A stretch of DNA of 32,000 bases from Megasphaera elsdenii DSM 20460 (lineage in GTDB: Bacteria; Bacillota; Negativicutes; Veillonellales; Megasphaeraceae), in contig NZ_CP027570.1 of the NCBI RefSeq assembly GCF_003010495.1, forward strand, positions 2,310,001 through 2,342,000. The letters run 5' to 3'. A program made the translations under genes and the position numbers. The notes beneath the pieces were generated by a model. That model searched no databases. It saw only the letters and a program-made list of their open reading frames with translations, and was not told the origin of the DNA. Shown here one piece after another: positions 3,956 to 30,133 of this stretch. Each line of letters starts with the position of its first letter. Position 1 is the stretch's first letter.

Positions 3956-3988
3956 GAAAAACAGTCCTCTCCTATCAATGAGTATATC

Positions 3989-4684
3989 TTATCGCAGTTC
4001 TTTCCTCAATCCCTCAAGCCAAGCGTCGATGTCCGCTTGGGAAGTCAGCATATGGTCGCCGCCCTCCGAATCAAACTGTATTTCCATAGCTGCGGCAAAT
4101 TTTGCCCCGGCGCAGTATTCCTTGATGTCCGTGATTACATGCCCCGGCCAGCCGCCGTGTGTCATAAAGGGAATGACCGTCTTGCCCGTCCAGTCCTGCG
4201 ATTTCAGGAAAGTGTGCATGGGAGGCGCCATGGTAAACCACCAGGTCGGCGTTCCCACGGCGATGATGTCATAATCGGCGATATTCACCGCAAGGGGCTT
4301 GATTTCCGGCATAAAGCCGGCCTCCACCTCCCGCTTCCCTTGCTCGGTCACTTCGCTGTTCCAGCCGCCATAGGGCGGATAAGGATGGGTCGGCTCGATT
4401 TCTGCATAATCGGCATCAAGAACCGTTTGCAACTGTTTGGCGATTTTCCTGGTGTTGCCACGGGAAAAGGAATAGCAGACGACCAAAATCTTCTTATCCT
4501 TGCTCATAATTCTCTCCTCCTGCTTGCTCATCATTTTTTCCTCCGCTAATTTCGCGTCCTTCATGCCGTCCGTTTTCAACGAGGAATTTTGCGGCTCGGA
4601 ATCTGCCGTAAAAGCGATGCCGAAAACGGCCAACATAGTCAGCAAAAGTGCGGCAAAGACGAACCGATATGTATGAGGCTTCAT
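3989..4684 (-). CDS. flavodoxin-family protein with an N-terminal signal/anchor extension (alternative internal start at 4507)
   Basis: Core KILVVCYSFSRGNTRKIA...YDIIAVGTPTWWFTMAPPMHTFL...GKTVIPFMTHGG is flavodoxin-like. The long form starts MKPHTYRFVFAALLLTMLAVFGIAF with SD AAGGAGG 7 nt upstream. The internal ATG at 4505-4507 (MSKDKKILVV) has its own AGGAGGAG SD. Confidence 0.8.
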   Translation of the reverse strand: MKPHTYRFVFAALLLTMLAVFGIAFTADSEPQNSSLKTDGMKDAKLAEEKMMSKQEERIMSKDKKILVVCYSFSRGNTRKIAKQLQTVLDADYAEIEPTHPYPPYGGWNSEVTEQGKREVEAGFMPEIKPLAVNIADYDIIAVGTPTWWFTMAPPMHTFLKSQDWTGKTVIPFMTHGGWPGHVITDIKEYCAGAKFAAAMEIQFDSEGGDHMLTSQADIDAWLEGLRKELR

Positions 4685-8013: not shown

Positions 8014-8922
8014 ATGTACAACAAACACTTGGACGCATTTCTGATGGCGGCCGATTGCGGCAGCTTCACGAAGGCGGCGAAAAAACTCTTCATCACCCCC
8101 AATGCGCTCATCAAGCAGATCAATCTCTTGGAGGGCAGATTAGAATTGACGCTGTTTCGGCGGACGAACCACGGCATTGTGCTTACAGAGGCCGGCAAGA
8201 GCATTTATCGGGATGCCCGCCGCATCATCCATATATCCGAGCAGGCTCTGGTTACTGCCAAGGCACTCACGACAGGCAAGCAGAACATTATCCGGCTGGG
8301 CAGTTCTATGATGAATCCCTGCCGCCCCATCATGGAGCTATGGGTGGCTGTAAGCAGTCGTTATCCTCATATCAAACTTTCCATCGTCCCCATTGATGAC
8401 GGAAAAAGTGACAAACAGGATTCTTTCGCTGAAAAAACGGGAAGCGTCGACATCATTGCCGGACTCTTCCCGTCCACATTATGGAAAAATAAAGTCAATG
8501 CCCTCAAAATACGCCAGCTTCCCTTGGCGGTGGCCGTCCCCATCAATCATCCGCTGGCAAGCTGCAAAAGGCTGATGCTGACCGACCTCTACAGCGAGAC
8601 GCTCCTCATGGTGGAGCGGGGCGACACAATTTATATCGACCGCTTGCGCGATGAGCTTGAAACCGCGCACCCGCAAATCCATATCCACGATGTACCTTCC
8701 TATGACATCAGCATCTTCAACTATGCAGCCACCACGGGGCATCCCATGATTACCGCCGATATTTGGTCGGAAATCCACCCTTCCCTCGTGACGCTCCCTT
8801 GCGACTGGGGAGGCGATTACTCCGTCCCATACGGCCTGCTCTATGCCAAAGAGCCTGCGCCGCACGTCAGGGAGTTTGTGGAGATTATGACAAGTTTGAT
8901 AAAAGAACAAACAACATTTTGA
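8014..8922 (+). CDS. LysR-family transcriptional regulator
   Basis: MYNKHLDAFLMAADCGSFTKAAKKLFITPNALIKQINLLE is the LysR HTH. ATG at 8014 with AGGAGG 7 nt upstream (track start 7936 is further upstream). Divergent from the AKR-CMD-esterase-flavodoxin-AKR operon. Confidence 0.9.
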   Translation: MYNKHLDAFLMAADCGSFTKAAKKLFITPNALIKQINLLEGRLELTLFRRTNHGIVLTEAGKSIYRDARRIIHISEQALVTAKALTTGKQNIIRLGSSMMNPCRPIMELWVAVSSRYPHIKLSIVPIDDGKSDKQDSFAEKTGSVDIIAGLFPSTLWKNKVNALKIRQLPLAVAVPINHPLASCKRLMLTDLYSETLLMVERGDTIYIDRLRDELETAHPQIHIHDVPSYDISIFNYAATTGHPMITADIWSEIHPSLVTLPCDWGGDYSVPYGLLYAKEPAPHVREFVEIMTSLIKEQTTF

Positions 8923-8925
8923 TTT

Positions 8926-9447
8926 TACAGCCGTCTCTCCGTTCCATCCCGAAACACCACCGTCATTCCACCATCCACACCCACCGTCACACAATCCCCA
9001 TCGCCCCCCAGAGCGGCTCATCGAACTCCGCCACAGGCCCCTCCTGCGCCTCAAGTGTCCTGATGAACCCCGCTCCCTAAAGGGACTAGCTTCGCGTCGC
9101 AACCGCTCGCCCTTGGCTGACCGCTGGGCGATGGTCTCCGTCACCTCGTCGAATCGTGTCTTAGCTTTCTCGTACCAGCCCTCTGGCAGTCAGCTCCCTG
9201 GCAATGGAGCGGAAGGTATACCCGTCCAGGAACAAACGGTAAATCAGTTTCACCGTCCTGGCCTGTTCCTTGTTGACGGCCAGATTCCCATCCGGCCCTT
9301 TGTCATAGCCCAGAAAATGCCTGTAGGGAACACACACCTTGCCGTCAGCGAACCGCTTCCGATGACCCCAGGTCACGTTTTCCGAAATGCTCCGGCTTTC
9401 TTCCTGTGCCAGGCTGCTCATGATGATGAGGAGGAGTTCCCCTTTAC
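8926..9447 (-). pseudogene. large serine recombinase remnant A (5'-truncated, internally deleted, frameshifted)
   Basis: 9161-9445 encodes GKGELLLIIMSSLAQEESRSISENVTWGHRKRF...YTFRSIARELTARG (end of the resolvase domain and start of the recombinase domain). This is joined out of frame near 9174-9180 to YEKAKTRFDEVTETIAQRSAKGER... and ...MTVVFRDGTERRL* (stop 8926-8928). There is no catalytic N-terminus and no zinc ribbon. Confidence 0.8.
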
Positions 9448-9490
9448 CGCAAATTTTGATACAAAATAACGATGCACCCCCTATACTCGA

Positions 9491-9622
9491 TTAACGATGA
9501 ACCCCCTTGCACCCCCCTGCCTATCGTTAAGCAAGTATTCCTCGGAAGCCGCACGGGACAAGGCTTCGACAAAAAGAGAAGGGGGTGCATTTGCACCCCC
9601 TCGTCGAGGATTTTGCACCCCC
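9491..9622. repeat. junction repeat R (26-bp repeat copy 2 at 9493-9518, plus a 104-bp unit at 9519-9622 repeated at 16575-16677)
   Basis: By manual alignment, 9519-9622 vs 16575-16677 shows about 7 substitutions and one 1-nt indel, and similarity stops sharply at 9622/16677. TGCACCCCC motifs lie at 9473, 9508, 9592 and 9614, and inverted at 9581. A 40-bp site at 9491-9530 has perfect 8-bp inverted arms TTAACGAT / ATCGTTAA. Confidence 0.8.
9571..9600 (-). terminator. intrinsic terminator of the MarR-headed operon (inside R)
   Basis: On the minus strand: GGGGGTGC-AAAT-GCACCCCC (8-bp GC stem) followed by TTCTCTTTTT. It lies 62 nt downstream of the last operon stop (9662). Confidence 0.7.
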
Positions 9623-9661
9623 AGTTCATATGTCGAATGGTTTTGTAATGGCAATAGATGT

Positions 9662-10555
9662 TTATAGCCAAGTGGCCCAAGTGCTTTGCAGTGGTATCTT
9701 TGTCGTGAATTGCACGGTTGCCGACCATTTCGTTTTTTTCCACTCGCCATTTTCCTTGCGGTAATCACATTTGCATTTCAGGGCGTTCATGGTGACTTCC
9801 GATATACCCTGCAATTTTTTTGCCATGTTGAGCATAACATATTCATAGGTTTCGGCGGTATCATCGGACAGTTTCGTAATGAGCTGCTGACCGGTAAAAC
9901 CGAAAGTAAACTCGCAGGCATCGAAAAAGCCGCAAAAAAGCGGAAATTCTTCGTCAATGCTTCCATGTATGGCCTGTTTGCCGTCCAAAAACATCTCAAG
10001 AACGGCATCGTTCGAAAAGACGGTACGCAAAACTTCATAATCTTTGTTGTCCACAGATACCCAATGCTTATCAAAATTTTGCCGAATGGCCAAGCGGTCT
10101 TCTATCTGGTTTGCAGCCATAATCTCCCCTCCCGAATTTTCCTCTTTCTTGACCCATGGCATGGCAAGCCCGATATCGGTACTGAGTTTGCCGCGACCGA
10201 AAGACATATTTTCAATCGGCAGGGGATACATCATCATGCTTACATCGTCCGGGCCGATGCCGACTTTTTCCTTGGCGTAGCGAGTGACAAGTTCGGCAAG
10301 TTTCCGCTTTTGTTCCAGTGTTCTGGTGTCGCCAAAGGCCACGTTCACGACTATGCGCTTGCCGGTGCGCTGCATATCGGGAAAAGTATCCGTGATAAAA
10401 AATTCATCTTCTTTATGCTCGCTGATGATGATAAAACGGTCATCCATCGGGGTTTCCATAGCCTCGTGAAGAGCAAGATTCAAGGCATCGGCAAGATTAC
10501 GTTTCTCCTCCCCAGTGAATTGGTTCGCTCCTATGTGAACATGAAAAACAGGCAT
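9662..10555 (-). CDS. tautomerase-superfamily domain fused to a SnoaL/NTF2-like domain
   Basis: Start MPVFHVHIGANQF (Pro right after Met, the tautomerase hallmark). The N-terminal ~130 aa resemble the long tautomerase_2 type (..DRFIIISEH..VNVAFGDTRTLEQKRKL..ENMSFGRG). The C-terminal ~150 aa begin IEDRLAIRQNFDKHWVSVDNKDYEVLRTVFSNDAVLEM, a SnoaL_4/NTF2 pattern. ATG at 10555 is preferred to the track start 10579. Confidence 0.75.
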   Translation of the reverse strand: MPVFHVHIGANQFTGEEKRNLADALNLALHEAMETPMDDRFIIISEHKEDEFFITDTFPDMQRTGKRIVVNVAFGDTRTLEQKRKLAELVTRYAKEKVGIGPDDVSMMMYPLPIENMSFGRGKLSTDIGLAMPWVKKEENSGGEIMAANQIEDRLAIRQNFDKHWVSVDNKDYEVLRTVFSNDAVLEMFLDGKQAIHGSIDEEFPLFCGFFDACEFTFGFTGQQLITKLSDDTAETYEYVMLNMAKKLQGISEVTMNALKCKCDYRKENGEWKKTKWSATVQFTTKIPLQSTWATWL

Positions 10556-10571
10556 TTTATCTCCCCTCGCT

Positions 10572-11567
10572 TCATTCACTCATGGCATTTCTCGCCCAGT
10601 CCGGATTCCCGATGACGGCTCTTGCTACGCCGATCATATCAGCTTTTCCCGCTTGGAGCAGGGATTCGGCATCTTCTTTTGTTTTGACACCGCCGGTAAG
10701 GATGATGGGCAGGGTCGTTTGCTGTTTGATTGCCTCGGAGGAGTCGCCAAAGTAGCCGACGCCTTTTTTGTTGCTCGGACTCGAGCCGCAGTGTCCACCG
10801 GAAATGCTGAGGTAGGAAAGTCCCGCGCTCTCCAATATTTTTGCAGCCTGAACGCCGTCCTCAATCGTACTGCCGCCGTCCATGTAGTCTGAGGCGCCGA
10901 AGCGCATTCCCAAAATAAGATCGCGCCCCAACACCTTGCGTACAGCCGCAATTACCTGCAAATGAAGTTTCAGCCGTCCATCAAGTGTTTTGATTGTGTA
11001 AGCGTCCGTGCGTTGATTCATTAGCGGCGAATAAAATTGATTGAGCAAATAACCGTGTGCGGCGTGAATCTCCACGCCATCGAAGCCGGCAACTTTTGCC
11101 CGACGTGCTGCCGCCGCAAAATTCTCTATCAAGCCGTCGATTTCTTCTTGCGACATGGCGTGTGTCGGAGCCATCGCGCCGCCCACCATAGCTTTCTTGG
11201 GACTTACAAGTCCGCTGGGGCTGATTCCTTCCGTTACCTGAGCCAACGGCGACACTGCCCCGGCATGGGAAATTTGCAGAACAGTTTTGCATCCGTTCCC
11301 GTGAATGAGGCTTGCCAGTTTCGTGAGCCCCGCTATATCCTCGTCTTTTGCAGAGGAAAGCTGATTCTCGGAAGCTCTCCCGTTCGGCTGAACAAAACTG
11401 TGTTCGATGACAACAAGCCCGAAGCAGCCGCCCTTTGTCCGCTCATCGTAATATTTGAGCTGTTCCTCCGTCACCGTGCCGTGGTCGGATTTCTCCAAAT
11501 CCACCGGTGCCATGACCAGGCGATTTTTCAGGGCAATGCCGCCCACCTCTATGGATTCTCTCAACAT
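10572..11567 (-). CDS. Old Yellow Enzyme-type NADH:flavin oxidoreductase (TIM barrel only)
   Basis: LKNRLVMAPV, GCFGLVVIEHSFV, GFDGVEIHAAHGYLLNQFYSPLMNQRTD, ILTGGVKT..DAE.LL..GKADMIGVARA. ATG at 11567 lies downstream of the cupin stop (11596). Confidence 0.9.
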   Translation of the reverse strand: MLRESIEVGGIALKNRLVMAPVDLEKSDHGTVTEEQLKYYDERTKGGCFGLVVIEHSFVQPNGRASENQLSSAKDEDIAGLTKLASLIHGNGCKTVLQISHAGAVSPLAQVTEGISPSGLVSPKKAMVGGAMAPTHAMSQEEIDGLIENFAAAARRAKVAGFDGVEIHAAHGYLLNQFYSPLMNQRTDAYTIKTLDGRLKLHLQVIAAVRKVLGRDLILGMRFGASDYMDGGSTIEDGVQAAKILESAGLSYLSISGGHCGSSPSNKKGVGYFGDSSEAIKQQTTLPIILTGGVKTKEDAESLLQAGKADMIGVARAVIGNPDWARNAMSE

Positions 11568-11595
11568 ATTTATGTTCCCCGCCTTTCTACGGCTA

Positions 11596-11955
11596 TTATT
11601 CTGCCACAACTCCATCGGTAGCCGTATATTCTTCCAAGGAACCGGCTTTCACTTGGATGCAAACATAGGAGAGAGGTTCATCTGCCGCTGCAAAAAACTG
11701 CCGCTTTCCCGCCGGGGAAATGCGAAGCCAGTCGCCTTTCTCCAGTTGTATCTCCTCCCCATCGACAACGGCCTTGCCCCGGCCGGACAAAATCGCATAG
11801 ATTTCCTCGTTTTGCTTGTGGTAGTGGGCAAAGGGTACTTTCTTCCCTGCGGCCAGCTCATTGATGCTGATTTCCGCCCCGGTAAGTCCTAATGTATCAT
11901 GCAATTCAATGCGTTTTTCGTTGTCTTTGACCTTCGTCGTGCTGTAATTTTTCAT
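11596..11955 (-). CDS. cupin-domain protein
   Basis: 119 aa; FAHYHKQNEEIYAILSGRGKAVVDGEEIQLEKGDWLRISP is a cupin two-motif core. GAGGAGG SD upstream. Confidence 0.8.
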   Translation of the reverse strand: MKNYSTTKVKDNEKRIELHDTLGLTGAEISINELAAGKKVPFAHYHKQNEEIYAILSGRGKAVVDGEEIQLEKGDWLRISPAGKRQFFAAADEPLSYVCIQVKAGSLEEYTATDGVVAE

Positions 11956-11974
11956 GGGATTGTCCTCCTCAATT

Positions 11975-12685
11975 TTATTTCCAAATAACCGATTCCGTCA
12001 GCGGACGGCGGGTCTTGTCACGATGGGGCGTTTCGTTCCGATAGCCAAGGGCAAGAGTAACGGCTGCGCTGTAATGCTCGGTGTCGTAGAGCTTTTCCTC
12101 TGCGCCCAAGATACGGTCAAGTTCTTTCGGCTGAAAGCCCTCGATGGCGCAGGAATCCACCCCGAAGAAAGCCGCCGCCGTCATCATGTTGGCCATGACG
12201 ATATACGCTTGTTTGGCAGACCAGTCAAAGGCGGCGCGTTCTGATTCCATGGTGTTGAAGTCCTTGGTGGAAAAATTCGTGTAGGCTTCTCTGAAAAACT
12301 CATATACCTTGTCGGGAATCTGATGAATTTCCTTCAACACATGGTCAAGGTAAGCCGAGCCGAAGGTCACGTCATTTTTCTTGTTGGCAATGAATACGAT
12401 GAAGTGGCTGGCATTGTCCAAGGGATTTTGCGCGCCCCACGCAAAGGGCTTAATCTTCTGGCGAAGTTCGGCATCTTGAAGCACAATCATCTTCCACGGC
12501 TCAAAGCCCATCGAGGTCGGCGCCAGCCGCGCAGCCTCCAAGATGGCATCGAAGGTTTCCTTGGAAATTTTGGCGTTCGGATCGAATTTCTTGGTCGCAT
12601 AGCGGTACTTCAGGACATTCAGCACCTCCTCGGCAGAGAAATTCGGCTTTTGGGCGTTCATGGTCAAAATGGTGTTCGGGTTCAT
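11975..12685 (-). CDS. NAD(P)H nitroreductase (NfsB/FRase-like)
   Basis: 236 aa; RYATKKFDP..ISKETFDAILEAARLAPTSMGFEPWK and the C-terminal ..GYRNE..HRDKTRRP are nitroreductase-fold signatures. Confidence 0.85.
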   Translation of the reverse strand: MNPNTILTMNAQKPNFSAEEVLNVLKYRYATKKFDPNAKISKETFDAILEAARLAPTSMGFEPWKMIVLQDAELRQKIKPFAWGAQNPLDNASHFIVFIANKKNDVTFGSAYLDHVLKEIHQIPDKVYEFFREAYTNFSTKDFNTMESERAAFDWSAKQAYIVMANMMTAAAFFGVDSCAIEGFQPKELDRILGAEEKLYDTEHYSAAVTLALGYRNETPHRDKTRRPLTESVIWK

Positions 12686-12724
12686 AGCGTCATTCCATTC
12701 CTTTCTGTGTAATAATTTTCTCTG

Positions 12725-13684
12725 TCAATTACGAATGGGACGAAATTCGATGGGAATCCAACGATATCCTGTTGCTTCTTTTTTGATATATCCCAAGCCC
12801 GGAAAGGGGAAGTGCGCTCCGGCAACTAAAATCCTGCGTTCGGCTATTTGCGGCAATATCGACAGGCGCATTTGGGCGGCTGTTTCGGCATCCGTATCAA
12901 ATATATCGCCCACTTCCGGGTGGGGAAGTTGCACCGATTTGATATGCACGAAATCTCCGAAGGCCAGAAAGTTTTGTCCCCGTGATGAAAACTCAAATCC
13001 GGTGTGTCCGGGAGTATGCCCGAAGAGCGGAACGAATTTTACGTTCGGAAACACCTCACTGCCCGAAGCATAGGACACTATGCGTCCTGAGCGGCGATAG
13101 GGAAGGAGCACATCTCTTGCCATTTTGACAAAGGGTAACATGGCCTCCGGGAAGTTTTCCATGGGGGTGTCGAGCCAAAAAATTTTTTCCTGTTCTGCCA
13201 GATAAATTGTTGCGTTTGGGAAAACCATTTCCCCGCTCTCCATAATCCCGTTGATATGGTCAAAATGAAGATGCGTCGGCAAGACTACATCGACATCGGA
13301 AGCCGCATAGCCCGCCGCGACCAGATTCTCCGTCAAGTGCCCTTTCGTGTCAAGAAATACCGGCGATTCCGTTTCGCCTATGCCCGCATCAATCAAAATC
13401 AGATGGTTTCCGGTATTCACCAAGAATACGCTCAGCGTCCCTTCCGACATTCCATCTGCCATGAGCGGGACAAAATCACGGCGAAGCATTTCGGAAAGTT
13501 CCTCGTGAGTAAATGAAGTAAAGCCGCTGAACATAGACGCATCGTATCGGACGGATGAATCAAACAGCGCCGTCACCTCATAATCGCCCACCATGGTGCG
13601 GAAGAACCCGGGAGCCTGTGTTTTTCGCATGGGTACGGGATTTTCTTTCATGCTGTTCACGCTTTCTGCCGTCTCAATCGACAT
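12725..13684 (-). CDS. MBL-fold metallo-hydrolase
   Basis: 319 aa with LPTHLHFDHING (HxHxDH) and downstream GHTPGH. The start is uncertain: ATG 13684 overlaps the upstream stop by 11 nt, and the alternative is ATG 13651. Confidence 0.85.
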   Translation of the reverse strand: MSIETAESVNSMKENPVPMRKTQAPGFFRTMVGDYEVTALFDSSVRYDASMFSGFTSFTHEELSEMLRRDFVPLMADGMSEGTLSVFLVNTGNHLILIDAGIGETESPVFLDTKGHLTENLVAAGYAASDVDVVLPTHLHFDHINGIMESGEMVFPNATIYLAEQEKIFWLDTPMENFPEAMLPFVKMARDVLLPYRRSGRIVSYASGSEVFPNVKFVPLFGHTPGHTGFEFSSRGQNFLAFGDFVHIKSVQLPHPEVGDIFDTDAETAAQMRLSILPQIAERRILVAGAHFPFPGLGYIKKEATGYRWIPIEFRPIRN

Positions 13685-14273
13685 AACTTACGGGATTGCC
13701 GGTGATTTTCCGCTCGGTGCGCTGCGGGAGTCCGTCTGCCGTGTCGGGCAAGCCCACCACCATCGAGGCGCAGACGGTTTCATCTTCCGCAAGGCCAAGT
13801 TTCATCAGATAGTCGCGGACAGCGGCATTTTCGTCCAGCCAATGGAGCTGGTTGATATAGCAGCTGCCGAGGTCAAGCTCGTTGGACATAAGCATCATGT
13901 TTTCTATGGCACAAGCGCAGTCCGCCATGGCGTTGCCGTAGCCGATTTTGTTGGCCGTCACGATAAGAACGGGGGCATTGTAATGAAAGGCGAAATTTCC
14001 TTTTTGCGCCGCCTTGATGACCGCCTGCATGGACTTATACATACCAGGCTTCACTTCCATAGCGGAAAAGGTCCGGCACACAAGTTCCGCCAGTTCCTTC
14101 AGCACCTTGGGACTGCGGATGACCAGAAAATGCGTGGTCTGACTGTTGCCGCCGCAGGGGGCGGCGCGCCCGGCATCCAGTATTTTTTCGAGCTTGTCGT
14201 CTGGGACGGCTTCCGCCTTGAATTTGCGGGTGCAACGTCTCGTTTTGATGACTTCGTAAGTGTTCATGTTCAT
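13674..14273 (-). CDS. nitroreductase-family protein (second, distinct paralogue)
   Basis: 199 aa; IKTRRCTRKFKAE.VPDDKLEKILDAGRAAPCGGNSQ. GGAGG SD upstream. Confidence 0.85.
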   Translation of the reverse strand: MNMNTYEVIKTRRCTRKFKAEAVPDDKLEKILDAGRAAPCGGNSQTTHFLVIRSPKVLKELAELVCRTFSAMEVKPGMYKSMQAVIKAAQKGNFAFHYNAPVLIVTANKIGYGNAMADCACAIENMMLMSNELDLGSCYINQLHWLDENAAVRDYLMKLGLAEDETVCASMVVGLPDTADGLPQRTERKITGNPVSYVD

Positions 14274-14302
14274 TCCTCCGCTGGCTTGTTTTCTCTATGG
14301 CG

Positions 14303-14728
14303 TTACATTTCCACGGATTTCGGCGTACCAAGCCCATGAGCGAGCTTGCAGGTGCATTCGTCCATATACATCAGGACAAGCGTGGGGCTATCGACGGTCT
14401 TATGGATTTTATGGACAATCTCATCGAGCCTGTCCCAAATGCGGCGACGCTCCTCTTTGTCCTCAGCGGCGACAAATTTCATCACGCCCGTGATGCGTAC
14501 CGTGAACTTGCCGGAGGGCTCCATGTAGGTGTAGGCCGTCTGGGGATGGTTGACGAGCTGCCGATAGACTTCCTTGTTGCTGGCCGTGGCGAAGTAAAAT
14601 TTCCCGTCCTCCTCGAACTGGAACTCGATGCACCGCGCTTCCGGCATTCCGTCCTCCCGCACGGTTGACATGATACCGTAGGCATCCACCGGCAAATACT
14701 TCATGAATTCTTCTTTGTTCATAGCCAA
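14303..14728 (-). CDS. pyridoxamine 5'-phosphate oxidase-like FMN-binding protein
   Basis: 141 aa; ..GIMSTVREDGMPEARCIEFQFEEDGKFYFATASNKEVYRQL is the split-barrel PNPOx-like pattern. AAGGAGG lies 8 nt upstream. Confidence 0.8.
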   Translation of the reverse strand: MAMNKEEFMKYLPVDAYGIMSTVREDGMPEARCIEFQFEEDGKFYFATASNKEVYRQLVNHPQTAYTYMEPSGKFTVRITGVMKFVAAEDKEERRRIWDRLDEIVHKIHKTVDSPTLVLMYMDECTCKLAHGLGTPKSVEM

Positions 14729-14769
14729 ATCCTCCTTGTAGTATGTATATACAGATGAAACATATAAAA

Positions 14770-15234
14770 TTACGCATGATCCAATTTGTCCGCCGCTTGG
14801 CTCATGGCCGCAGAAAGCTGGCGATATTCTGCTTCACCGATGGCGGCGACTGCCCTGTCTCTCAGCTGATGCAAACTCTCGTCGATGCCTTCTGTTTTCT
14901 CTTTGCCAAGTTCCGTCAGGCTGACATGAACGGTTTTCCATTCCTGCTCCTTTTGCAGTATGCCTTGCCCTACGAGAGCATTGACAAAGCGGGTGCAGGT
15001 GGACGGCGCAATATCCAGCTTCTCGCTGAGTTCGGAAATCGTGATGCCCGGATATTGGTTCACCACAATCAGCACATAAACATAGGGAGCGGCAATACCG
15101 GTCGTGGCATACACTTCATTTACAATACGCCGAAGCACATTCGCCAGCCGATTGGCAGTAAAGAACAGGCATTTTCTCAAGATAGTCTCGTCTGCTTTCA
15201 CCTTGCCGTCCTCCTCTCTCATTTGCATATACAT
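14770..15234 (-). CDS. MarR-family transcriptional regulator (start uncertain: 15228 leaderless or GTG 15201)
   Basis: Winged-helix core ..YVLIVVNQYPGITISELSEKLDIAPSTCTRFVNALVGQGILQKE. First gene of an 8-gene same-strand operon. Confidence 0.85.
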   Translation of the reverse strand: MYMQMREEDGKVKADETILRKCLFFTANRLANVLRRIVNEVYATTGIAAPYVYVLIVVNQYPGITISELSEKLDIAPSTCTRFVNALVGQGILQKEQEWKTVHVSLTELGKEKTEGIDESLHQLRDRAVAAIGEAEYRQLSAAMSQAADKLDHA

Positions 15235-15263
15235 ATAATAGCACTACCCCATACTGCTGTCAA
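15235..15263 (-). promoter_or_regulatory. sigma70-type promoter of the MarR operon
   Basis: Minus strand: TTGACA (15263-15258), 17-nt spacer, TATTAT (15240-15235). The -10 directly abuts the first ATG of the track ORF. Confidence 0.55.
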
Positions 15264-15273
15264 TACCCTTCAG

Positions 15274-15305
15274 AAAAAATTTGGCAGGACAAAAAAAGCC
15301 CCGCC
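15274..15305 (-). terminator. possible terminator downstream of recombinase remnant B
   Basis: Minus strand: GGCGGGGC-TTTTTTT-GTCCTGCC (8 pairs including two G.U) followed by AAATTTTTT. Confidence 0.35.
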
Positions 15306-15337
15306 AAGCATCATTCAAGATATTGGATTCATATTTG

Positions 15338-15745
15338 TCATTTATGTATCGTCATCCCATCGCGGAACACCACGGGCATACCGCCATCTGCGTCCACCGT
15401 TACATAATCCACCATGCTGCCCCACAGCTACTCGTCGAAATCCCAGAGCGGTGCGGTCTGCCCCTCAAACGTCTTGATGAAACCAGCCAGACGCTCTGCC
15501 TTGACCGACCGCGCGGCGATGGCCTCCGTCACCTCGTCAAACCACTGCTTGGCGGTATCGTACCGCACCACCAGTCCGTTGTAGCGTTTCTGGTACTCCG
15601 CTTGGTTCTGTGCGATGCGGGCGTTCTCGGCGACGCACTCCTCCAACATCTTCACCACCACGGCAAGCTCCTCGGCGAGAGCCGACTTCTCCCACCCTAG
15701 TTTCCCGATGGTGCAGAGCATCGCTTGGATGGTTTTCGGCGTTGC
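15338..15745 (-). pseudogene. large serine recombinase remnant B (5'-truncated, in-frame TAG)
   Basis: ..LCTIGKLGWEKSALAEELAVVVKMLEECVAENARIAQNQAEYQKRYNGLVVRYDTAKQWFDEVTEAIAARSVKAERLAGFIKTFEGQTAPLWDFDE-TAG-LWGSMVDYVTVDADGGMPVVFRDGMTIHK* (stop 15338-15340). Collinear with remnant C. Confidence 0.7.
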
Positions 15746-15858
15746 CTATAGCCAGCCGTCGGCATCGACATATATTCTATCCGCGGTGGTTTTCGACACG
15801 AATCATCAGATTCCTGCATAGCACGAAAATTTTTTCGCACCGCACCATCCATCGCGCA

Positions 15859-16562
15859 TCACACCCTCGTCCCATCCCGGAACACCACGGACAGCCCGCC
15901 GTCCGCCCTCACCGTCACGCACTCCACCATGCTCCCCCACAGCCGCTCGTCGAACTCGGTAAGCGGTTCGCCCTGCCCTTCGAGCGTCTTGGCGAACCCC
16001 GCCAGCCGCTCTGCCTTGGCTGACCGCTCGGCGATTGTTTCCATCACCTCGTCGAACCGCCGCTTGGCGGCATCGTACCTTGCCACCAACCTGTTGTAGC
16101 GTTTTTGATACTCCGCTTGATTTTGAGCGATGCGGGCGTTCTCGGCGACGCACTCCTCGACCATCTTCACCACCACGGCAAGTTCCTCGGCGAGTGCAGA
16201 CTTTTCCTGCTCAAGTTCTTCCGTGGCGCAGAGCGTCTTTTGCACGAGCCGGGCATTGGCGATGACCTCCTCGCGCTCCGTCACCAGTTTGTTGAATGCC
16301 GTGACGAAGGCCGCCTTGACCTCGTCCTCCGTCACATGAGGCGTTTGGCATTTATGCCCGTCGTACTTGTTGTTGCAACGGTAGATGACCCTGCGGTACT
16401 TGTCTGTGCTGTGCCAGACCTTCGCCCCAAAATAGCTGCCGCATTCGGCGCATTTTATCTTGCCGGAGAAAATGCTCACGCCGCTGTATCTGCCTCCCTC
16501 CCGCTTGCGCCGCGCTGCCTCCGACTGCACCATCTCAAAGGTAGCAGGGTCGATGATGGCGG
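15859..16562 (-). pseudogene. large serine recombinase remnant C (5'-truncated; zinc ribbon, coiled coil and C-terminal domain intact)
   Basis: PAIIDPATFEMVQ..., zinc ribbon GKIKCAECGSYFG..YRCNNKYDGHKCQTPH, a coiled coil, and the ending LWGSMVECVTVRADGGLSVVFRDGTRV*. The first ~14 codons of the track ORF are read-through into repeat R'. No resolvase catalytic domain. Confidence 0.8.
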
Positions 16563-16677
16563 GAACCCCCCACCGCCTATCGTTAAGCAAGTCTTCCTCG
16601 GAAGCCGCGCAGGACAAGGCTTCGACAAAAAGAGAGGGGGTGCATTTGCACCCCCTCGGTGGGGATTTTGCTCCCCC
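16563..16677. repeat. junction repeat R' (second copy of R; the core part is shortened)
   Basis: 16575-16677 aligns with 9519-9622. 16563-16574 (gaaccccccacc) looks like a collapsed version of gaacccccttgcacccccct. Motifs: inverted at 16636, direct at 16647, degenerate at 16669. Confidence 0.8.
16627..16655 (-). terminator. intrinsic terminator (R' copy) downstream of the TetR-module operon
   Basis: Same GGGGGTGC-AAAT-GCACCCCC hairpin, followed by TCTCTTTTT on the minus strand. Confidence 0.65.
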
Positions 16678-16695
16678 TAAATTGGATAAGTTCTG

Positions 16696-16850
16696 TCACT
16701 TTTCCATTTGTTCCATTAGCCAATACGGATTCTTCAAAATCTCTCTGCCAACCCCAATCAAGTCCGCAGCATTATTTTTTAGGAGAGTTTCTGCATCTTC
16801 TAAGGTCTTAACTCCCCCCGTCAGCATGACGGGAATGAGTTCGAAAATGG
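16696..16850 (-). pseudogene. 3' remnant of a second OYE-type flavin oxidoreductase
   Basis: Minus-strand frame gives ELIPVMLTGGVKTLEDAETLLKNNAADLIGVGREILKNPYWLMEQMEK* (stop 16696-16698). This parallels the C-terminus of the intact OYE (LPIILTGGVKTKEDAESLLQAGKADMIGVARAVIGNPDW). It overlaps the tail of the MBL ORF in another frame. Confidence 0.55.
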
Positions 16851-17477
16851 CGCATACCACGAGCGTTCCCGTTCTGCCCCCACCGTAGTCGGTTCCGTAT
16901 GTCCGGACAGCAAGACGGTTTCCTGCGGCAGTTTCAGTATACGCTGTGTGATACTCTGCATCAATGTTTGCTCATCCCCGCCGGGAAAATGTGTCAGCCC
17001 GAAACTGTTCTTGAAAATGGAATCACCCACGAAGGCCACATTGTCCTTGGCGCTATAATAGAATACGCTGTCCGTAGTATGACCGGGAACGTAGTGCATG
17101 GTCAAAGAAAATACAGGATTCCTTTCGAGGGCAATCCTACTCCCGTCCGGCAAATAGCTCACATCATCCAGTTTGATATATAGCCCGCAACCTTCCGAGA
17201 GATTCCAACGAGGATTCTCTGTATATTCCCGCCCTCTCTCGTGCATACAGATAGGGATGGACAGTGCACCCTGGATTTGCGCTGCGGCACCCATGTGGTC
17301 GAAATGTCCATGGGTGAGCAGAATTTTTTCGATGACGAATCCTCTTTGTCGAATAACGGCTAAAAGAGTATCTGCTTCTGCACCGGGGTCGAGCAAAAAG
17401 CCGTGTCCTGTGGCATCATCAATATAAAAGTAGGTATTGGTGTTAAAAACGCCTGCCACGGGCAACGATAAAATCAT
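16821..17477 (-). CDS. MBL-fold hydrolase, glyoxalase II / YcbL-like
   Basis: 218 aa; ILLTHGHFDHMGAA (HxHxDH) and YVPGHTTDS. The last ~12 residues (WYAPFSNSFPSC) are read from the OYE remnant and are probably not native. Confidence 0.85.
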   Translation of the reverse strand: MILSLPVAGVFNTNTYFYIDDATGHGFLLDPGAEADTLLAVIRQRGFVIEKILLTHGHFDHMGAAAQIQGALSIPICMHERGREYTENPRWNLSEGCGLYIKLDDVSYLPDGSRIALERNPVFSLTMHYVPGHTTDSVFYYSAKDNVAFVGDSIFKNSFGLTHFPGGDEQTLMQSITQRILKLPQETVLLSGHTEPTTVGAERERSWYAPFSNSFPSC

Positions 17478-17491
17478 GATGCTCCCCCGCC

Positions 17492-18187
17492 TTACTGCAC
17501 AATATGGCAGCCATCCGCCCCGCAGACCATGCCATCTAATGATGTTGCCGCTGACGTTTCCTCAGCCAGTATCTTTTCGATGGCTTTTTTCAGCATGGCC
17601 GTCGGTTGTGCACCTGATGCCGTGTACTTGCCGTTGATAAGGAAATAGGGTACGCCGTGAATGCCGTGCTCCATTGCTTCCTGCTCATCGGCGCGTACCT
17701 CATCGGCGTATCGGTCGCCGGACAACACTGCAGTCACTTCGTCCTTGTCCAAGCCACATTCGCCTGCGATTTGTGTCAGCACATCATGGTCGCTGAGTTT
17801 CAGATTCTTGGTGAAGTAAGCATCAAATAACTTCGTGATAATTCCTGTTTTCCCTTTTTCCTGGGCATATTTCGTGAGACGCAGGGAGTCAAAGGTGTTG
17901 GTGTAACGTGTAGAGACGTAGCGAAAGTCGATTCCCTCACTCCTGCCCATGCGGGAGATGGCTTCAATACGCTCTGCTGCCTCCTCTTTGCTCAGATGAT
18001 ACTTCGCGGCAAAACGATCCACCGTAGAGGAAACGACCTCCCGGCTGGCATAAGGGTCAAGTTCAAAGCTCTTGAATTCGATTTCCACTTTATCTCCGCC
18101 GTCAATTTCCGCCAAGGCCTTTTCCAGCCGCTTCTCACCGATATAGCAGAAGGGACAGGCGTAGTCCGACCATAATTCGATTTTCAT
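17492..18187 (-). CDS. DsbA-family thiol oxidoreductase (FrnE-like)
   Basis: MKIELWSDYACPFCYIGEKRL (CPFC active site) ...HGIHGVPYFLINGKY. ATG at 18187 has TAAGGAGG upstream. The track start at 18313 adds 42 implausible residues that run through the promoter. Confidence 0.85.
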   Translation of the reverse strand: MKIELWSDYACPFCYIGEKRLEKALAEIDGGDKVEIEFKSFELDPYASREVVSSTVDRFAAKYHLSKEEAAERIEAISRMGRSEGIDFRYVSTRYTNTFDSLRLTKYAQEKGKTGIITKLFDAYFTKNLKLSDHDVLTQIAGECGLDKDEVTAVLSGDRYADEVRADEQEAMEHGIHGVPYFLINGKYTASGAQPTAMLKKAIEKILAEETSAATSLDGMVCGADGCHIVQ

Positions 18188-18227
18188 TTTCCGTGCCTCC
18201 TTAGCAATATATAGAACTTGTTCGATA

Positions 18228-18261
18228 TTGACATTATACACAGGGCAGTATATAATGTCAA
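18228..18261. promoter_or_regulatory. palindromic dual consensus promoter / probable TetR operator
   Basis: ttgacattatacacagggcagtatataatgtcaa. Plus strand: TTGACA (18228-33), 17 nt, TATAAT (18251-56). Minus strand: TTGACA (18261-56), 17 nt, TATAAT (18238-33). The outer 12 nt form a near-perfect inverted repeat. Confidence 0.6.
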
Positions 18262-18304
18262 TAGAAATAGAGCGCGTTCTAAAAATAATTTTGAAGAAGG
18301 TAAG

Positions 18305-18520
18305 CGACGTCAACTACTCCCGACTAAAGTCGGGAGCTTGTAAGTCGGAACTACATAGGTACTAACGGCATCAAAAGACGTCTCCCTATATCCGCCTACA
18401 TCATCGGGTGGCTGACAACACCCGCTTTGCTAAGGAGTTTACTCCGAAGCAGTTGTTATTCTTTCGTAACGAGGATGGTTATCTCCGGAAATCCACATAG
18501 TTCCGAGGAGCTGAATATTC
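18305..18520 (-). ncRNA. predicted omega/right-end RNA of the TnpB element (extent approximate)
   Basis: By analogy with characterised TnpB systems, the guide RNA scaffold overlaps the tnpB 3' end and the right end. The region has several hairpins: ggagt-aa-actcc across the stop codon, cgggtg..cacccg, and the right-end hairpin at 18317-18336. Confidence 0.4.
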
Positions 18521-19665
18521 ATGGCACCAATACGGTCATCGTTGGATTTGTAACCGCACTGACAGCTATATAAGTGCCTGTGATGGTCACGGTTTTCCTT
18601 GTGGATAGTACCGCATTTGGGACAACGTTGAGAGGTATACTTAGCAGATACCTTCAGAACTTCGGAACGATTTTCATGAGCTTTATAAGTCAGGAATTGC
18701 TCCAACTGATAGAATGCCCAGCTGCGCAGGTCGTAATTTTGTTTAGCAGTTTTTGAAAGATTGGACTCTTCGAAGCTAACACCGGTCAGATCTTCAAGCA
18801 CAAATAGCGTATCTTTGCCGTATTTTTCAACGAGTGTCTTAGAAATCCGATGGTTTACATCAGACATCCAACGGTTCTCTCGTCCTGAAATGGCTTTGAG
18901 TCTACGCTTTGCTGATTTTGTACCCTTAGACTGGAGCTGGCGGCGGACTTCCTGAAATTTATGGCGTTTAGTAGCCATCTTCTTACCAGAGACGAATTCG
19001 GTTTTGCCCTGTTCGTCGTAACTAACAGTAAGAAAACGTAATCCGCGGTCAATACCGACAACGTGACGGACGTTTTCTTTCTGAAAATCTTCGACAGCTT
19101 GGGTTACGGGAATATGGAGATACCATAAACCTTTGAGTTCGACCAGTTTTCCTGTTCCAAGGTCATAGGAACCATCGAGGTATTCAGCGAAATGTTCACC
19201 CTCAAAAGTGCATTTGGTTCTTTTTCCGAGTGTATTGATAGACAGAACCTGTCCGCTATCAACGAAGCTATAATCACGATTGCGAACCAAGTCCGCTTGT
19301 GGGCGGCTGAAGAATACTGGCTTCCAGAGCCATTCCAAAGTTTTGGTAATGCGTTGCCAGTTGCCATTCTTATCCTTATATCTGTAGGGATTTTGGAAGA
19401 GCTGTTGTTTTACCGTTTTATATCTGGCAATCGTCGTCTTGATAGAAGACTGGGCCAGCTGCGATTTCAGACCGAACTGGCTGCGCAGGTCACTGTACAG
19501 CTCTCTGTTGAGACTTTGGTAGGTCATGTTAAATCGGTGGTCGAAGATGTACTGCGACACGAAGTTACAAGCCTGACGGTATTGTTCAGTCATCTGACGG
19601 AACAGCGTCTCTTGTTCGGGAGTAACATGTATACGAAGTTTTATTGTTTTAGTTAGGTTAGACAT
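18439..19665 (-). CDS. tnpB: TnpB (IS605 OrfB-type RNA-guided endonuclease family)
   Basis: 408 aa. RuvC-like motifs VVGIDRG, FVLEDL and SNDDRIGAMNI. Zinc finger CPKCG...CQCG. All three catalytic acidic positions appear intact. Confidence 0.9.
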   Translation of the reverse strand: MSNLTKTIKLRIHVTPEQETLFRQMTEQYRQACNFVSQYIFDHRFNMTYQSLNRELYSDLRSQFGLKSQLAQSSIKTTIARYKTVKQQLFQNPYRYKDKNGNWQRITKTLEWLWKPVFFSRPQADLVRNRDYSFVDSGQVLSINTLGKRTKCTFEGEHFAEYLDGSYDLGTGKLVELKGLWYLHIPVTQAVEDFQKENVRHVVGIDRGLRFLTVSYDEQGKTEFVSGKKMATKRHKFQEVRRQLQSKGTKSAKRRLKAISGRENRWMSDVNHRISKTLVEKYGKDTLFVLEDLTGVSFEESNLSKTAKQNYDLRSWAFYQLEQFLTYKAHENRSEVLKVSAKYTSQRCPKCGTIHKENRDHHRHLYSCQCGYKSNDDRIGAMNIQLLGTMWISGDNHPRYERITTASE

Positions 19666-19809
19666 TTTTTCACCTGCCTTTCTAAAATTTATACTACTTC
19701 ATTAAAATTATTATATCATAATTTTTTTGCTAAAAGTCTATTATTGATTATTGAAAGGAGGGGAGGTGCGGCTCCTCTCATGACTAAAGTCACGAGTCTC
19801 CGCCGCACC

Positions 19810-20409
19810 ATGAAGATGAAAAAATGTGGTCGTCCTCCTAAAAAGGACAATCCCGAAGAAAATAAGGAAAAAATCATAGCTGCGGCCATAGCCCTTATCG
19901 AGGAACAAGGCGCGGACTGTATCACGGTGCGACGTGTCTGCGAGAAAGCGGATATTGCCACGGGAACATTTTATTATCACTTCCGTAATAAGGATGACCT
20001 GATGATGCACTTTGTGCGAGGGATCTCCTTCGAGACAGTCGAGCTTACGGCTCCACCCTCCGATATTGCAGGACGCATAGCAGAATTATATATGCTCCTT
20101 ATCCGGCAGTACATGAACCTTGGCATAGCTTTTATGCGTAGTTTTTACACGCCGGACAATCAGGCACTCCACACCTATATGGGAGAAAAAGACGGGAAGT
20201 TTGCCGCTGGAACGGTCATGGCCAGATGCGAGCAGGAGTTTGTCAAGGCACAGGCAGAAGGCTGCATACAAAAAAATGCAGATATCCACCAAATGAGCGC
20301 GGATATCTGCACGATTGTAAAGGGCTGTATCTTCGAGTGGTGTCTCAGCGAGGGGAAAATGGATATAGAAGCGGCGGTTCAACGAATGCTAAAAGCATAT
20401 ATGGCATAG
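19810..20409 (+). CDS. TetR/AcrR-family transcriptional regulator
   Basis: MKMKKCGRPPKKDNPEENKEKIIAAAIALIEEQGADCITVRRVCEKADIATGTFYYHFRNKDDL is the TetR HTH. Upstream in-frame codons from 19744 fall inside the IS left-end hairpin. There is no good SD before 19810. Confidence 0.8.
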   Translation: MKMKKCGRPPKKDNPEENKEKIIAAAIALIEEQGADCITVRRVCEKADIATGTFYYHFRNKDDLMMHFVRGISFETVELTAPPSDIAGRIAELYMLLIRQYMNLGIAFMRSFYTPDNQALHTYMGEKDGKFAAGTVMARCEQEFVKAQAEGCIQKNADIHQMSADICTIVKGCIFEWCLSEGKMDIEAAVQRMLKAYMA

Positions 20410-25148: not shown

Positions 25149-26534
25149 TTATTTCAAACCTGCCAATTTAGCCGGATCCATGGCTTTGTCGAACTGCTCT
25201 GCCGTGACCCACCCCGTCTTCAGGGCTGACTCTTTCAGGGTCAGCCCTTCTTTGGCTGCCTGTTTGGCAATGGTGCAGGCCTTGTCATAACCGACGAGAG
25301 GCACCAGGCCCGTGACCAGGATCAGCGAGTTGTAGAGGTTAGTCGTGATCCGTTCCTGATTCGGTTCGATGCCGACGACGCAGTGCTTGCGGAAGGAATC
25401 CATGCAGTCCGTCAGAAGGCGGATGGACTGGGTCAGGTTGTAGGCGATGACGGGCATGAAGACGTTCAATTCGAAATTGCCCTGGCTGGCGGCGATGCCC
25501 AAGGTGGCATCGTTGCCCATGACCTGGACGGCGACCATGGTGACGGCTTCGCACTGCGTCGGGTTGACTTTGCTCGGCATGATGGAGCTGCCCGGTTCGT
25601 TTTCAGGGATGCGGATTTCGCCGATGCCGCAACGCGGTCCCGACGAGAGCCAGCGGACGTCGTTGGCGATTTTCATCAGGTCGCAGGCCAGGGCCTTGAG
25701 CATGCCGTGGACGACGACGAGTTCATCTTTACTGGTCAGGGACTGGAATTTATTCGGTGCCGTGCGGAACGTCGTGCCCGTCAGTTCACTGACGATTTCT
25801 GCAAAGCGGACGTCGTAGCCCTTCGGGCAGTTGATGCCCGTGCCGACAGCCGTGCCGCCCATAGCCAGGTCGCGCAGAAAATCGACGCCCTGCGTGAGCA
25901 TTTCCTTGTCGCGCTGAATCATGCGGGCCCAGCCGCTGAATTCCTGGCCCAGCGTCAAGGGCGTCGCGTCCTGCAAGTGGGTCCGGCCGATTTTGACGAT
26001 GTCCTTGAAGGCTTCCTGTTTGGCCCGGAGTGCCTGGTAGAGGGCTTCCATGGCAGGGAACAGTTTCTGTTCGATGAGCAGGACGCCGACCATATGCAGG
26101 CCTGTCGGGAAGGTATCGTTCGAGCTCTGGGAATGATTGACGTGGTCATTGGGATGGACATTCAAGTCCTTGCCCTGGGCTTTTAAGATTTGTTTGGCCC
26201 GGTTGGCGACGACTTCGTTGACGTTCATGTTGAACTGCGTGCCGCTGCCGGTCATCCATACGGCCAGGGGGAAATTGCCATCGAGTTTGCCGGCCAGAAT
26301 GTCATCGCAGGCCTGGATAATGGCATCGGCCCGGTCGCCGTCGACGACGCCCAATTCTTTGTTGGTCAAAGCAGCAGCTTTTTTCAGGTAAGCAAAGACG
26401 GTGACCATTTCGGCGGGAATCTTTTCCGTGCCAATCTTAAAATTCTCGAAACTGCGCTGTGTCTGGGCGCCCCAGAGTTTATCAGCTGGGACTTTGATTT
26501 CCCCCATCGAATCTCTTTCTATACGGTATTCCAT
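25149..26534 (-). CDS. fumC: class II fumarate hydratase
   Basis: MEYRIERDSMGEIKVPADKLWGAQTQRS, GSSIMPSKVNPTQCEA (the fumarate lyase signature GSxxMxxKxN). ATG at 26534 with GGGAGG upstream. Confidence 0.95.
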   Translation of the reverse strand: MEYRIERDSMGEIKVPADKLWGAQTQRSFENFKIGTEKIPAEMVTVFAYLKKAAALTNKELGVVDGDRADAIIQACDDILAGKLDGNFPLAVWMTGSGTQFNMNVNEVVANRAKQILKAQGKDLNVHPNDHVNHSQSSNDTFPTGLHMVGVLLIEQKLFPAMEALYQALRAKQEAFKDIVKIGRTHLQDATPLTLGQEFSGWARMIQRDKEMLTQGVDFLRDLAMGGTAVGTGINCPKGYDVRFAEIVSELTGTTFRTAPNKFQSLTSKDELVVVHGMLKALACDLMKIANDVRWLSSGPRCGIGEIRIPENEPGSSIMPSKVNPTQCEAVTMVAVQVMGNDATLGIAASQGNFELNVFMPVIAYNLTQSIRLLTDCMDSFRKHCVVGIEPNQERITTNLYNSLILVTGLVPLVGYDKACTIAKQAAKEGLTLKESALKTGWVTAEQFDKAMDPAKLAGLK

Positions 26535-26602
26535 GAAAACCTCCCATATAATCAAATTATATAAAACATAGCGGATTCAGGCGGGCGCCCTTTGGGTCGC
26601 CC

Positions 26603-28159: not shown

Positions 28160-28184
28160 AACGACCTTCCTTTCGTGTGGTAGT

Positions 28185-28213
28185 AAAAAAGGCTGTCTGC
28201 GACAGCCTTTTTT
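28185..28213. terminator. bidirectional intrinsic terminator after purD
   Basis: aaaaaa-ggctgtc-tgc-gacagcc-tttttt. Sits between the purD stop (28235) and the CoA-transferase start (28159). Confidence 0.65.
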
Positions 28214-28234
28214 GAGTTTGATGTTGGAATCACG

Positions 28235-30114: not shown

Positions 30115-30133
30115 GGAAAATTCCTCCTATTCC

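Follow-up and report, generated by a model that had tools for sequence, protein, structure and literature searches.

In Megasphaera elsdenii DSM 20460, eight co-directional genes headed by a MarR-type regulator are interpreted here, with moderate confidence, as one autoregulated operon that would encode NAD(P)H-dependent flavin reductases and helper enzymes as an inducible battery directed against redox-active or electrophilic small molecules. The genes lie in a stretch of 32,000 nt (the window; contig NZ_CP027570.1, positions 2,310,001 to 2,342,000) of a 2.48-Mb genome in a single contig. The eight open reading frames (ORFs), at 9662–15263 of the window, are all intact and all on the minus strand. 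In order, they encode the regulator, a PNPOx-like protein, a nitroreductase-fold protein (NTRa), a lactonase-type hydrolase of the metallo-β-lactamase fold (MBL), a second nitroreductase-fold protein (NTRb), a cupin, an ene-reductase of the old yellow enzyme (OYE) family and a tautomerase–SnoaL fusion protein. The sequence-only reading, an earlier annotation made from the DNA without database searches, had named the same eight families, and Pfam agrees. It had also taken the genes for a dedicated route for nitroaromatic, quinone or enone compounds. Its picture of a regulator-headed, co-directional flavoenzyme unit with its own promoter and terminator stands; the dedicated route is not supported. 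We favour an electrophile or xenobiotic response operon repressed by its own regulator because the regulator, its operators and the PNPOx-like gene form a constant core, the accessory genes are exchanged, a flavin or NAD(P)H reductase is linked to the regulator throughout its clade, and a cysteine of the regulator is conserved. As to function, the best guess is that the products act reductively on nitro, quinone or enone compounds.

The promoter P1 (15235–15263, minus strand) consists of TTGACA, a 17-nt spacer and TATTAT with a TG extension, and matches the consensus at 11 of 12 positions. It is the best of seven promoter-like sites between 9000 and 16000, but since shuffled sequences yield 6.1 such sites, the count alone is not significant. 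The real support for P1 is its conservation, as a TTGACA-17-TATNAT promoter is kept upstream of the MarR orthologues although the flanks are otherwise unrelated; the sequence-only reading had placed its one consensus-like promoter at this position. An internal promoter-like site (13353..13325) is not taken as a signal, the count being at chance level. At position 15260, contigs of two RNA-library runs carry G instead of T, so that the −35 hexamer on the coding strand reads TTGCCA rather than TTGACA, a natural promoter variant.

A 14-bp palindrome with the consensus TTTGYATATRCAAA abuts the −10 hexamer of P1 and covers the expected transcription start (candidate operator O1, 15222–15235, one mismatch). 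A second copy (candidate operator O2, 14742–14755, two mismatches) is located between marR and the PNPOx-like gene. Chance would give 0.24 such sites in the window, against the two found. A palindrome at the O1 position occurs 17–31 nt before the marR start in all 24 orthologous loci compared, within surroundings of unrelated sequence, and a second one 13–55 nt past the marR stop in 16 of the 24, with almost no other matches in up to 18 kb of these loci. Ahead of the second copy there is often a −10-like (C/T)ATCAT, placed in register just as the −10 hexamer is at the first copy, and the second site may thus mark another regulated promoter or a roadblock. The dual operator around marR is an addition to the sequence-only reading; a (pseudo)palindrome of not more than 16–20 bp overlapping the regulator's own promoter is what is expected of the MarR family, and binding of both sites by MarR is predicted. 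Elsewhere in the genome the operator 12-mer has one other match, which forms part of the stem of a terminator hairpin and was rejected as a regulon member; the regulon is therefore probably this operon alone.

The operon is closed by an intrinsic terminator (9569–9602, minus strand) with a 10-bp stem containing seven GC pairs and a T-run, which folds at −29.2 kcal/mol (z = −3.1) and coincides with the strong terminator described earlier at 9571–9600. A terminator-like hairpin upstream of P1 (15281–15307, minus strand; 10-bp stem, six GC pairs, T-run) insulates the operon from the recombinase remnant beyond it. Weak hairpins within the genes occur at chance level and are not taken as signals, and an Rfam search of 8500–17000 found no RNA family or riboswitch.

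The composition of related loci argues for a modular unit. Among 401 sampled genomes of the same class, five, all of one other family, have a MarR that is 74–78% identical. The gene sets there are MarR-PNPOx-NTRa-cupin-OYE, MarR-PNPOx-cupin-OYE, MarR-PNPOx-NTRa followed by the contig end, MarR-NTRb-FMN_red and, in the rumen genome RUG043, MarR-OYE-NTRa-MBL-NTRb-tautomerase-FMN_red. A further orthologous set is MarR-PNPOx-NTRa-FMN_red-NTRb-FMN_red-cupin. The smallest set is MarR-NTRb-FMN_red and the largest seen is that of the eight genes in the window. A scan of metagenomes with the MarR alignment returned 80 loci, several on contigs too short to judge. Where the regulator is 51–100% identical (human, monkey, other gut or rumen samples), the PNPOx-like gene almost always comes next and is followed by a changing selection from NTRa, NTRb, cupin, OYE, FMN_red and the S-component of an energy-coupling factor transporter. 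For relatives at 35–42% identity, the next gene is a reductase in nine of the nine loci sampled (Flavin_Reduct in five, nitroreductase in two, aldo/keto reductase and Flavodoxin_2 in one each); a tenth ORF, second in line at one of these loci, encodes a SnoaL_4 protein. The genes therefore do not occur only singly in other genomes but co-occur, and the MarR orthologues head very different subsets in different orders. Because pathway steps would not be dispensable in relatives, a dedicated linear route is unsupported. The variability is that of a modular stress battery or toolkit rather than of an interdependent pathway; MarR, the operator pair and the PNPOx-like gene form the constant core, and the accessory reductases are exchanged freely.

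The regulator (marR, 14770–15201, minus strand) is a winged helix-turn-helix protein of 143 aa. It scores 32.6 bits against PF01047 (cut-off 24.6) and also matches HTH_24, in keeping with the MarR-family fold. Its Cys11 stands within a C-L-[FY]-F motif. When the query is aligned with 131 homologues (24–58% identity) taken from an unbiased HMMER search across 1.8 billion representatives, 119 of the 132 sequences retain this residue. Cys11 is invariant among the MarR orthologues; Cys69 shows no conservation. A conserved N-terminal cysteine in helix 1 is shared with the 1-Cys MarR proteins OhrR, SarZ and MgrA, with YodB, QsrR and HypR (HxlR/DUF24) and with NemR. Cys11, a putatively reactive residue, is possibly a thiol switch.

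In the mechanism that we propose, a MarR dimer would bind TTTGYATATRCAAA at O1, overlapping the −10/+1 region of the only strong promoter, and would bind also at O2 ahead of the first enzyme gene; both sites together would hold all eight genes off. An inducer, probably by modifying Cys11 or else as a bound ligand, would free the repressor, and the whole unit would then be transcribed to the terminator (9602–9579). The PNPOx-like protein, the two nitroreductases and the OYE would reduce quinones, nitro groups and activated C=C bonds, and the lactonase (similar to methyl parathion hydrolase and dihydrocoumarin hydrolase), the cupin and the tautomerase–SnoaL protein would process ring or enol products.

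By analogy, its mode of action would resemble that of the MhqR, YodB/QsrR/HypR or NemR systems. MhqR is a MarR-type repressor with a 9-9 inverted-repeat operator that controls quinone resistance genes, and in Staphylococcus aureus the mhqRED operon is its sole target (PMC6798810). As in the MhqR regulon of Bacillus subtilis and in S. aureus mhqRED, a MarR-type protein here heads its own operon, with an inverted repeat at the promoter and detoxifying enzymes as targets. Quinones release MhqR, as is proposed here for the inducer, and the count of operators suggests a single-operon regulon like that of S. aureus. The targets of MhqR are ring-cleavage dioxygenases and a carboxylesterase, whereas here they are flavin reductases, a lactonase, a cupin and a tautomerase; sensing by MhqR is not thiol-based, whereas this MarR family keeps its N-terminal cysteine; and the bracketing of marR by two operators is unlike the MhqR arrangement. 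Orthology with MhqR was rejected, as no MhqR model is among the NCBIfam matches of the regulator and the operon holds no glyoxalase-fold, dioxygenase-fold or MhqD-type gene.

YodB, QsrR and HypR and the NemR-nemA-gloA system resemble the operon in their targets, which are nitroreductases, azoreductases or OYE proteins. The target of NemR is NemA. The regulator here is a MarR protein proper (PF01047), not a member of the HxlR or TetR families. HypR controls a flavin oxidoreductase (PMC3351151). The OhrR model gives 15.6 bits (cut-off 200) over residues 23–112 only. The cysteine of OhrR stands in the context L-C-F-x-L-Y, unlike the C-L-[FY]-F found here. OhrR membership and control of an ohr peroxidase were rejected on the low score and on the lack of an OsmC/Ohr-type peroxidase gene in the operon. 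The best NCBIfam match of the regulator is BilQ, at 42.4 bits (cut-off 125), beginning at residue 39 and missing the Cys11 region. The bilirubin reductase genes bilQRS of gut Firmicutes share the MarR–OYE pairing, since in these gut anaerobes a MarR-family regulator goes with a reductase of the OYE family and a flavodoxin-like protein. Membership of bilQRS was rejected on the BilQ score and on that of the bilirubin reductase N-domain (142.9 bits, cut-off 425). Judged by such cut-offs, membership of the MhqR, OhrR, BilQ/BilR and NamA families is excluded.

Three of the gene starts were corrected from the junctions. The marR start is most likely the GTG at 15201, preceded by the Shine–Dalgarno (SD) sequence GAGGAGG; the ATG at 15234 is disfavoured because it lies inside the −10/+1 region. 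The PNPOx-like start was moved to the ATG at 14722, and that of the fusion protein to the ATG at 10555, which places proline directly after the initiator methionine (Pro1), the hallmark of tautomerases. The OYE probably starts at the ATG at 11567 within its ORF (10572–11615). With these starts, the gaps along the operon are 47, 29, −11, 39, 19, 28 (or −20 with the OYE at 11615) and 16 nt, where −11 to 41 nt had been given earlier. A clear SD sequence precedes five starts (MarR, PNPOx-like, NTRa, cupin and tautomerase) and a weaker purine-rich stretch two others (NTRb, and OYE at 11567), in line with the good SD sequences ascribed earlier to most genes. No clear SD precedes the MBL start, and its overlap with the stop codon before it suggests translational coupling.

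At least four products had been predicted to bind flavin mononucleotide (FMN), and the PNPOx-like protein, both nitroreductases and the OYE do belong to FMN-binding families. The PNPOx-like protein (14303–14722, minus strand; 139 aa; PF01243, E 9e-12) is predicted to form a split barrel (predicted local distance difference test score, pLDDT, 93). Its best fold match is 2ig6, a NimC/NimA-family protein (TM score 0.76, sequence E 1e-4), and general-stress-protein-26-like and haem-binding split barrels follow with nearly equal scores. The likeness to the Nim 5-nitroimidazole reductases noted earlier lies at the level of the common split-barrel fold, the identity to 2ig6 being only 18%. No Nim-specific model is among the NCBIfam matches of the protein, and in the protein atlas it falls in generic PNPOx clusters only. 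NTRa (13674–14273, minus strand; 199 aa; PF00881, 103 bits) has as its nearest solved relative 3ek3, deposited as 'Nitroreductase' and of uncharacterised function (E 3e-24). NTRb (11975–12685, minus strand; 236 aa; PF00881, 102 bits) groups with NfsB/FRase-I-type structures, that is, oxygen-insensitive NAD(P)H nitroreductases and flavin reductases (best PDB matches E 3e-58 to 1e-49), and scores 95 bits against PRK11053 (cut-off 227). The NTRb orthologue of RUG043 is split into two frames at residue 135/136 (locus L044, 3697–3699), by a frameshift or an assembly error.

The last gene (9662–10555, minus strand; 297 aa) encodes a tautomerase joined in one frame to a SnoaL_4/NTF2-like domain (PF14552, PF01361, PF13577), and the ORF is continuous in two independent genomes; the fusion protein of Megasphaera hexanoica strain MH is identical. 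The tautomerase half resembles malonate semialdehyde decarboxylase (MSAD) with an E value of only 3e-9 (HMMER alignment to 2aag). The equivalents of Pro1, Asp37 and Arg75 are kept and that of Arg73 is Asp; the full catalytic set of MSAD was rejected on account of this replacement. Exactly at the boundary of the two domains (10120–10145) there is an in-frame full SD (GGGAGGGGAG) with an ATG at 10120, which have the look of a start that belonged to a once separate gene and is now a relic or still in use. The relatives of the tautomerase half are stand-alone proteins of 137–138 aa, and in a search of 5.8 billion proteins the fused form was found only in 100%-identical copies. Loss of a stop codon is the probable origin of the fusion, and a separate SnoaL product may be made as well. 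A word-based search with the SnoaL_4 half returned only fragments of the same cassette; the half resembles neither the SnoaL_4 gene found after a distant MarR relative nor the ORF of unknown function between MBL and tautomerase in Curvibacter.

The tautomerase half is 62–70% identical to proteins of Betaproteobacteria (loci L023–L026: Curvibacter, Rhodoferax, Duganella) and 64–65% identical to proteins of Actinobacteria (L027–L028: Arthrobacter, Paenarthrobacter), far above what is expected across phyla. In Betaproteobacteria, the tautomerase (~70%) is found close to a conserved MBL homologue (~40%). The Curvibacter locus has, beside the two, a flavin reductase and an HxlR regulator, and this MBL–tautomerase–flavin reductase cluster recalls the YodB/HypR class.

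These enzymes raise the question whether the operon is a nitro-compound module that detoxifies or activates 5-nitroimidazoles, nitrofurans, chloramphenicol or the plant toxins 3-nitropropionate and 3-nitropropanol. Malonate semialdehyde is a product of nitropropionate breakdown. The MSAD-like tautomerase with Pro1, Asp and one Arg kept, the two nitroreductase-fold genes, the grouping of NTRb and the NimC/NimA-family match of the PNPOx-like protein all point to such a module, and M. elsdenii and Selenomonas ruminantium are listed as rumen metabolisers of 3-nitropropanol and 3-nitropropionate (PMC4777734). We nevertheless consider it unlikely: the Nim likeness is confined to the fold, the nitroreductase fold serves the reduction of quinones, flavins and enones in general, and one MSAD arginine is Asp. 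Because MarR and the operon occur in only 2 of 222 Veillonellales genomes searched (this genome and Megasphaera hexanoica), the module cannot explain a genus-wide trait.

The MBL-fold protein (12725–13684, minus strand; 319 aa; PF00753) keeps the binuclear metal motif HLHFDH (residues 138–143). Its nearest solved relatives, aligned over about 300 residues, are OPHC2 (E 2e-71), the reconstructed ancestral dihydrocoumarin hydrolase AncDHCH1 (8e-57) and methyl parathion hydrolase (1e-52); the HxHxDH motif and the full-length homology place it in their clade. The score against the AidB-type lactonase equivalog is 154 bits (cut-off 360). The protein appears to be a lactonase-type enzyme, and hydrolysis of lactones or phosphotriesters is predicted. 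The nearest structures of the OYE (331 aa from 11567, minus strand; PF00724, 222 bits) are YqjM, TOYE, CrS and XenA (E 1e-51 to 1e-38). The catalytic motif H-x-x-H-x-Y is intact as HAAHGYL (residues 184–190). Although these structures belong to the YqjM/thermophilic-like class, its specific features are missing. The PMCxY (Cys26/Tyr28) motif is absent, the aligned N-terminal stretch being APVDL, and since the alignments end at chain residues 320–328 of 338–349, the C-terminal tail with the arginine finger is lacking. NamA membership was rejected at 216 bits (cut-off 431). The cupin (11596–11955, minus strand; 119 aa; PF07883) is small and single-domain, with the first metal motif present (HYHKQNEE) and the His of the second replaced by Gln; the nearest solved relative is the uncharacterised cupin protein 3cew (E 1.5e-46).

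On this evidence the operon might be a dedicated route for plant or fungal α,β-unsaturated lactones such as coumarins and butenolides. The OYE would reduce the C=C bond (coumarin to dihydrocoumarin), the lactonase would open the ring, the tautomerase–SnoaL protein and the cupin would take on the enol or phenolic products, and MarR would sense the substrate as a ligand. The ancestral activity of the clade to which the MBL belongs is dihydrocoumarin hydrolysis (PMC8222346), and AncDHCH1 is among the closest solved relatives of the MBL. XenA, of the same class as the OYE and among its matches, reduces 8-hydroxycoumarin (PMC5519977). OYE and MBL occur together in the window and in RUG043, MBL and tautomerase are neighbours even in Betaproteobacteria, and the hosts come from rumen and gut. 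Among the seven genome loci with a 74–100% identical MarR orthologue, however, MBL and tautomerase are present in only three; elsewhere OYE occurs with no MBL, or both are missing. It is the PNPOx-like gene, rather than OYE or MBL, that constantly accompanies MarR, and the MBL falls below the lactonase cut-off. We judge the lactone route to be as improbable as the nitro-compound module, and neither explains the variable gene sets.

The operon is cargo of a recently exchanged island. Positions 9337–16564 of the window are 99% identical to DNA of M. hexanoica strain MH, whereas the core genes at 25150–32000 are 79–81% identical and lie 2 Mb away in the M. hexanoica genome. The eight-gene composition is confined to this one recently transferred cassette; a megablast search of a plasmid collection with the operon gave no match. 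The operon is flanked by 3′ fragments of beheaded serine-recombinase genes, and a junction repeat of ~110 bp (9512–9622 and 16568–16677) contains the downstream terminator.

The eight genes could also be a historical mosaic, that is, unrelated cargo stacked by cassette recombination behind MarR-PNPOx and co-directional without a shared function. The recombinase fragments and junction repeats around the operon favour this, as do flanks that differ between samples and the 70% identity of the tautomerase to betaproteobacterial proteins, which suggests piecemeal acquisition. In the metagenome contig L046 (4976–6069), moreover, the promoter, marR and the PNPOx-like gene are present at 99.7% identity up to window position 14226 within NTRa, where the contig breaks into unrelated DNA. 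Against a mosaic, the same families recur with this MarR in independent lineages in different orders, the genes show tight gaps and overlaps with no notable internal terminators, and all eight families are under purifying selection. We hold a mosaic without shared function to be very improbable. That the genes are intact had been taken earlier as a sign of selection, and this is borne out by dN/dS values of 0.04–0.21 against orthologues, which are rough as dS is saturated; the PNPOx-like gene is the most constrained (0.037).

Contigs from RNA libraries of four studies cover the operon; such contigs carry neither depth nor strand and do not define the ends of transcripts. One spans 9453–15668 and another 9408–15212, ending 23 nt downstream of the −10 hexamer. 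They are compatible with co-transcription of the eight genes, without proving it. The left flanks of the cassette differ between samples.

The reductase-battery interpretation has to accommodate several points that weigh against it. The RNA-library contigs continue upstream of the promoter in three of the four runs, where DNA carry-over or read-through is possible. A copy of O2 within two mismatches is absent from five orthologous loci (L038, L039, L040, L048 and L049) and from L058. The cupin, the tautomerase–SnoaL protein and the lactonase have no obvious part in simple reduction and hint at more specific chemistry. The genes around the operon are cassettes assembled by recombination, and some of the gene order may be historical accident. 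Finally, a conserved cysteine is no proof of a switch, because the characterised MhqR senses quinones without a thiol (PMC6798810).

On contig L046, positions 1–572 correspond to window 3976–4547 (a flavodoxin gene) in reverse, a different mosaic of the same modules. At 16821–18313 (minus strand), the next cassette in the window, bounded at its end by the junction repeat, carries DsbA (273 aa) followed by an MBL-fold gene of 218 aa. In the metagenome locus L067 (10000–12651), a MarR relative is followed by DsbA, the same kind of MBL gene and a full OYE (44% identity), and because of this arrangement the cassette in the window looks like a truncated sister operon. Between 343 and 8922 there are three aldo/keto reductases, a flavodoxin-like protein, a carboxylesterase, a CMD-family protein and LysR regulators, a detoxification-like set. 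A TnpB-only element of the IS200/IS605 type (18291–19824) is absent at the same site in M. hexanoica, which has a 94% identical copy elsewhere.

Of the versions seen of this proposed reductase battery, headed by a cysteine-containing MarR and a PNPOx-like protein, the operon is the largest, and it is mobile; its fusion protein was met nowhere else in the searches beyond its identical copies. Drugs, plant toxins and feed additives are among the many quinone, nitro and enone compounds that anaerobes of gut and rumen transform, and the regulated gene sets behind such transformations are poorly mapped outside aerobic model organisms. The locus offers a compact testable system with a candidate operator pair, a candidate sensing cysteine and a constant regulator–flavoprotein core, and its natural variants show which enzymes are interchangeable. 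Because the cassette has moved between Megasphaera species, a tolerance or drug-activating capacity would be transferable. As a tentative extension, which we hold to be possible rather than probable, MarR proteins with C-L-[FY]-F, TTTGYATATRCAAA operators on both sides of marR and a PNPOx-like partner may constitute an uncharacterised, widespread thiol-switch family that controls mix-and-match flavin reductase batteries in anaerobes; the eight-gene Megasphaera version would then be a horizontally mobile cassette by which the capacity to tolerate or activate toxins and drugs of the quinone, nitro or lactone type could pass from one gut or rumen species to another.

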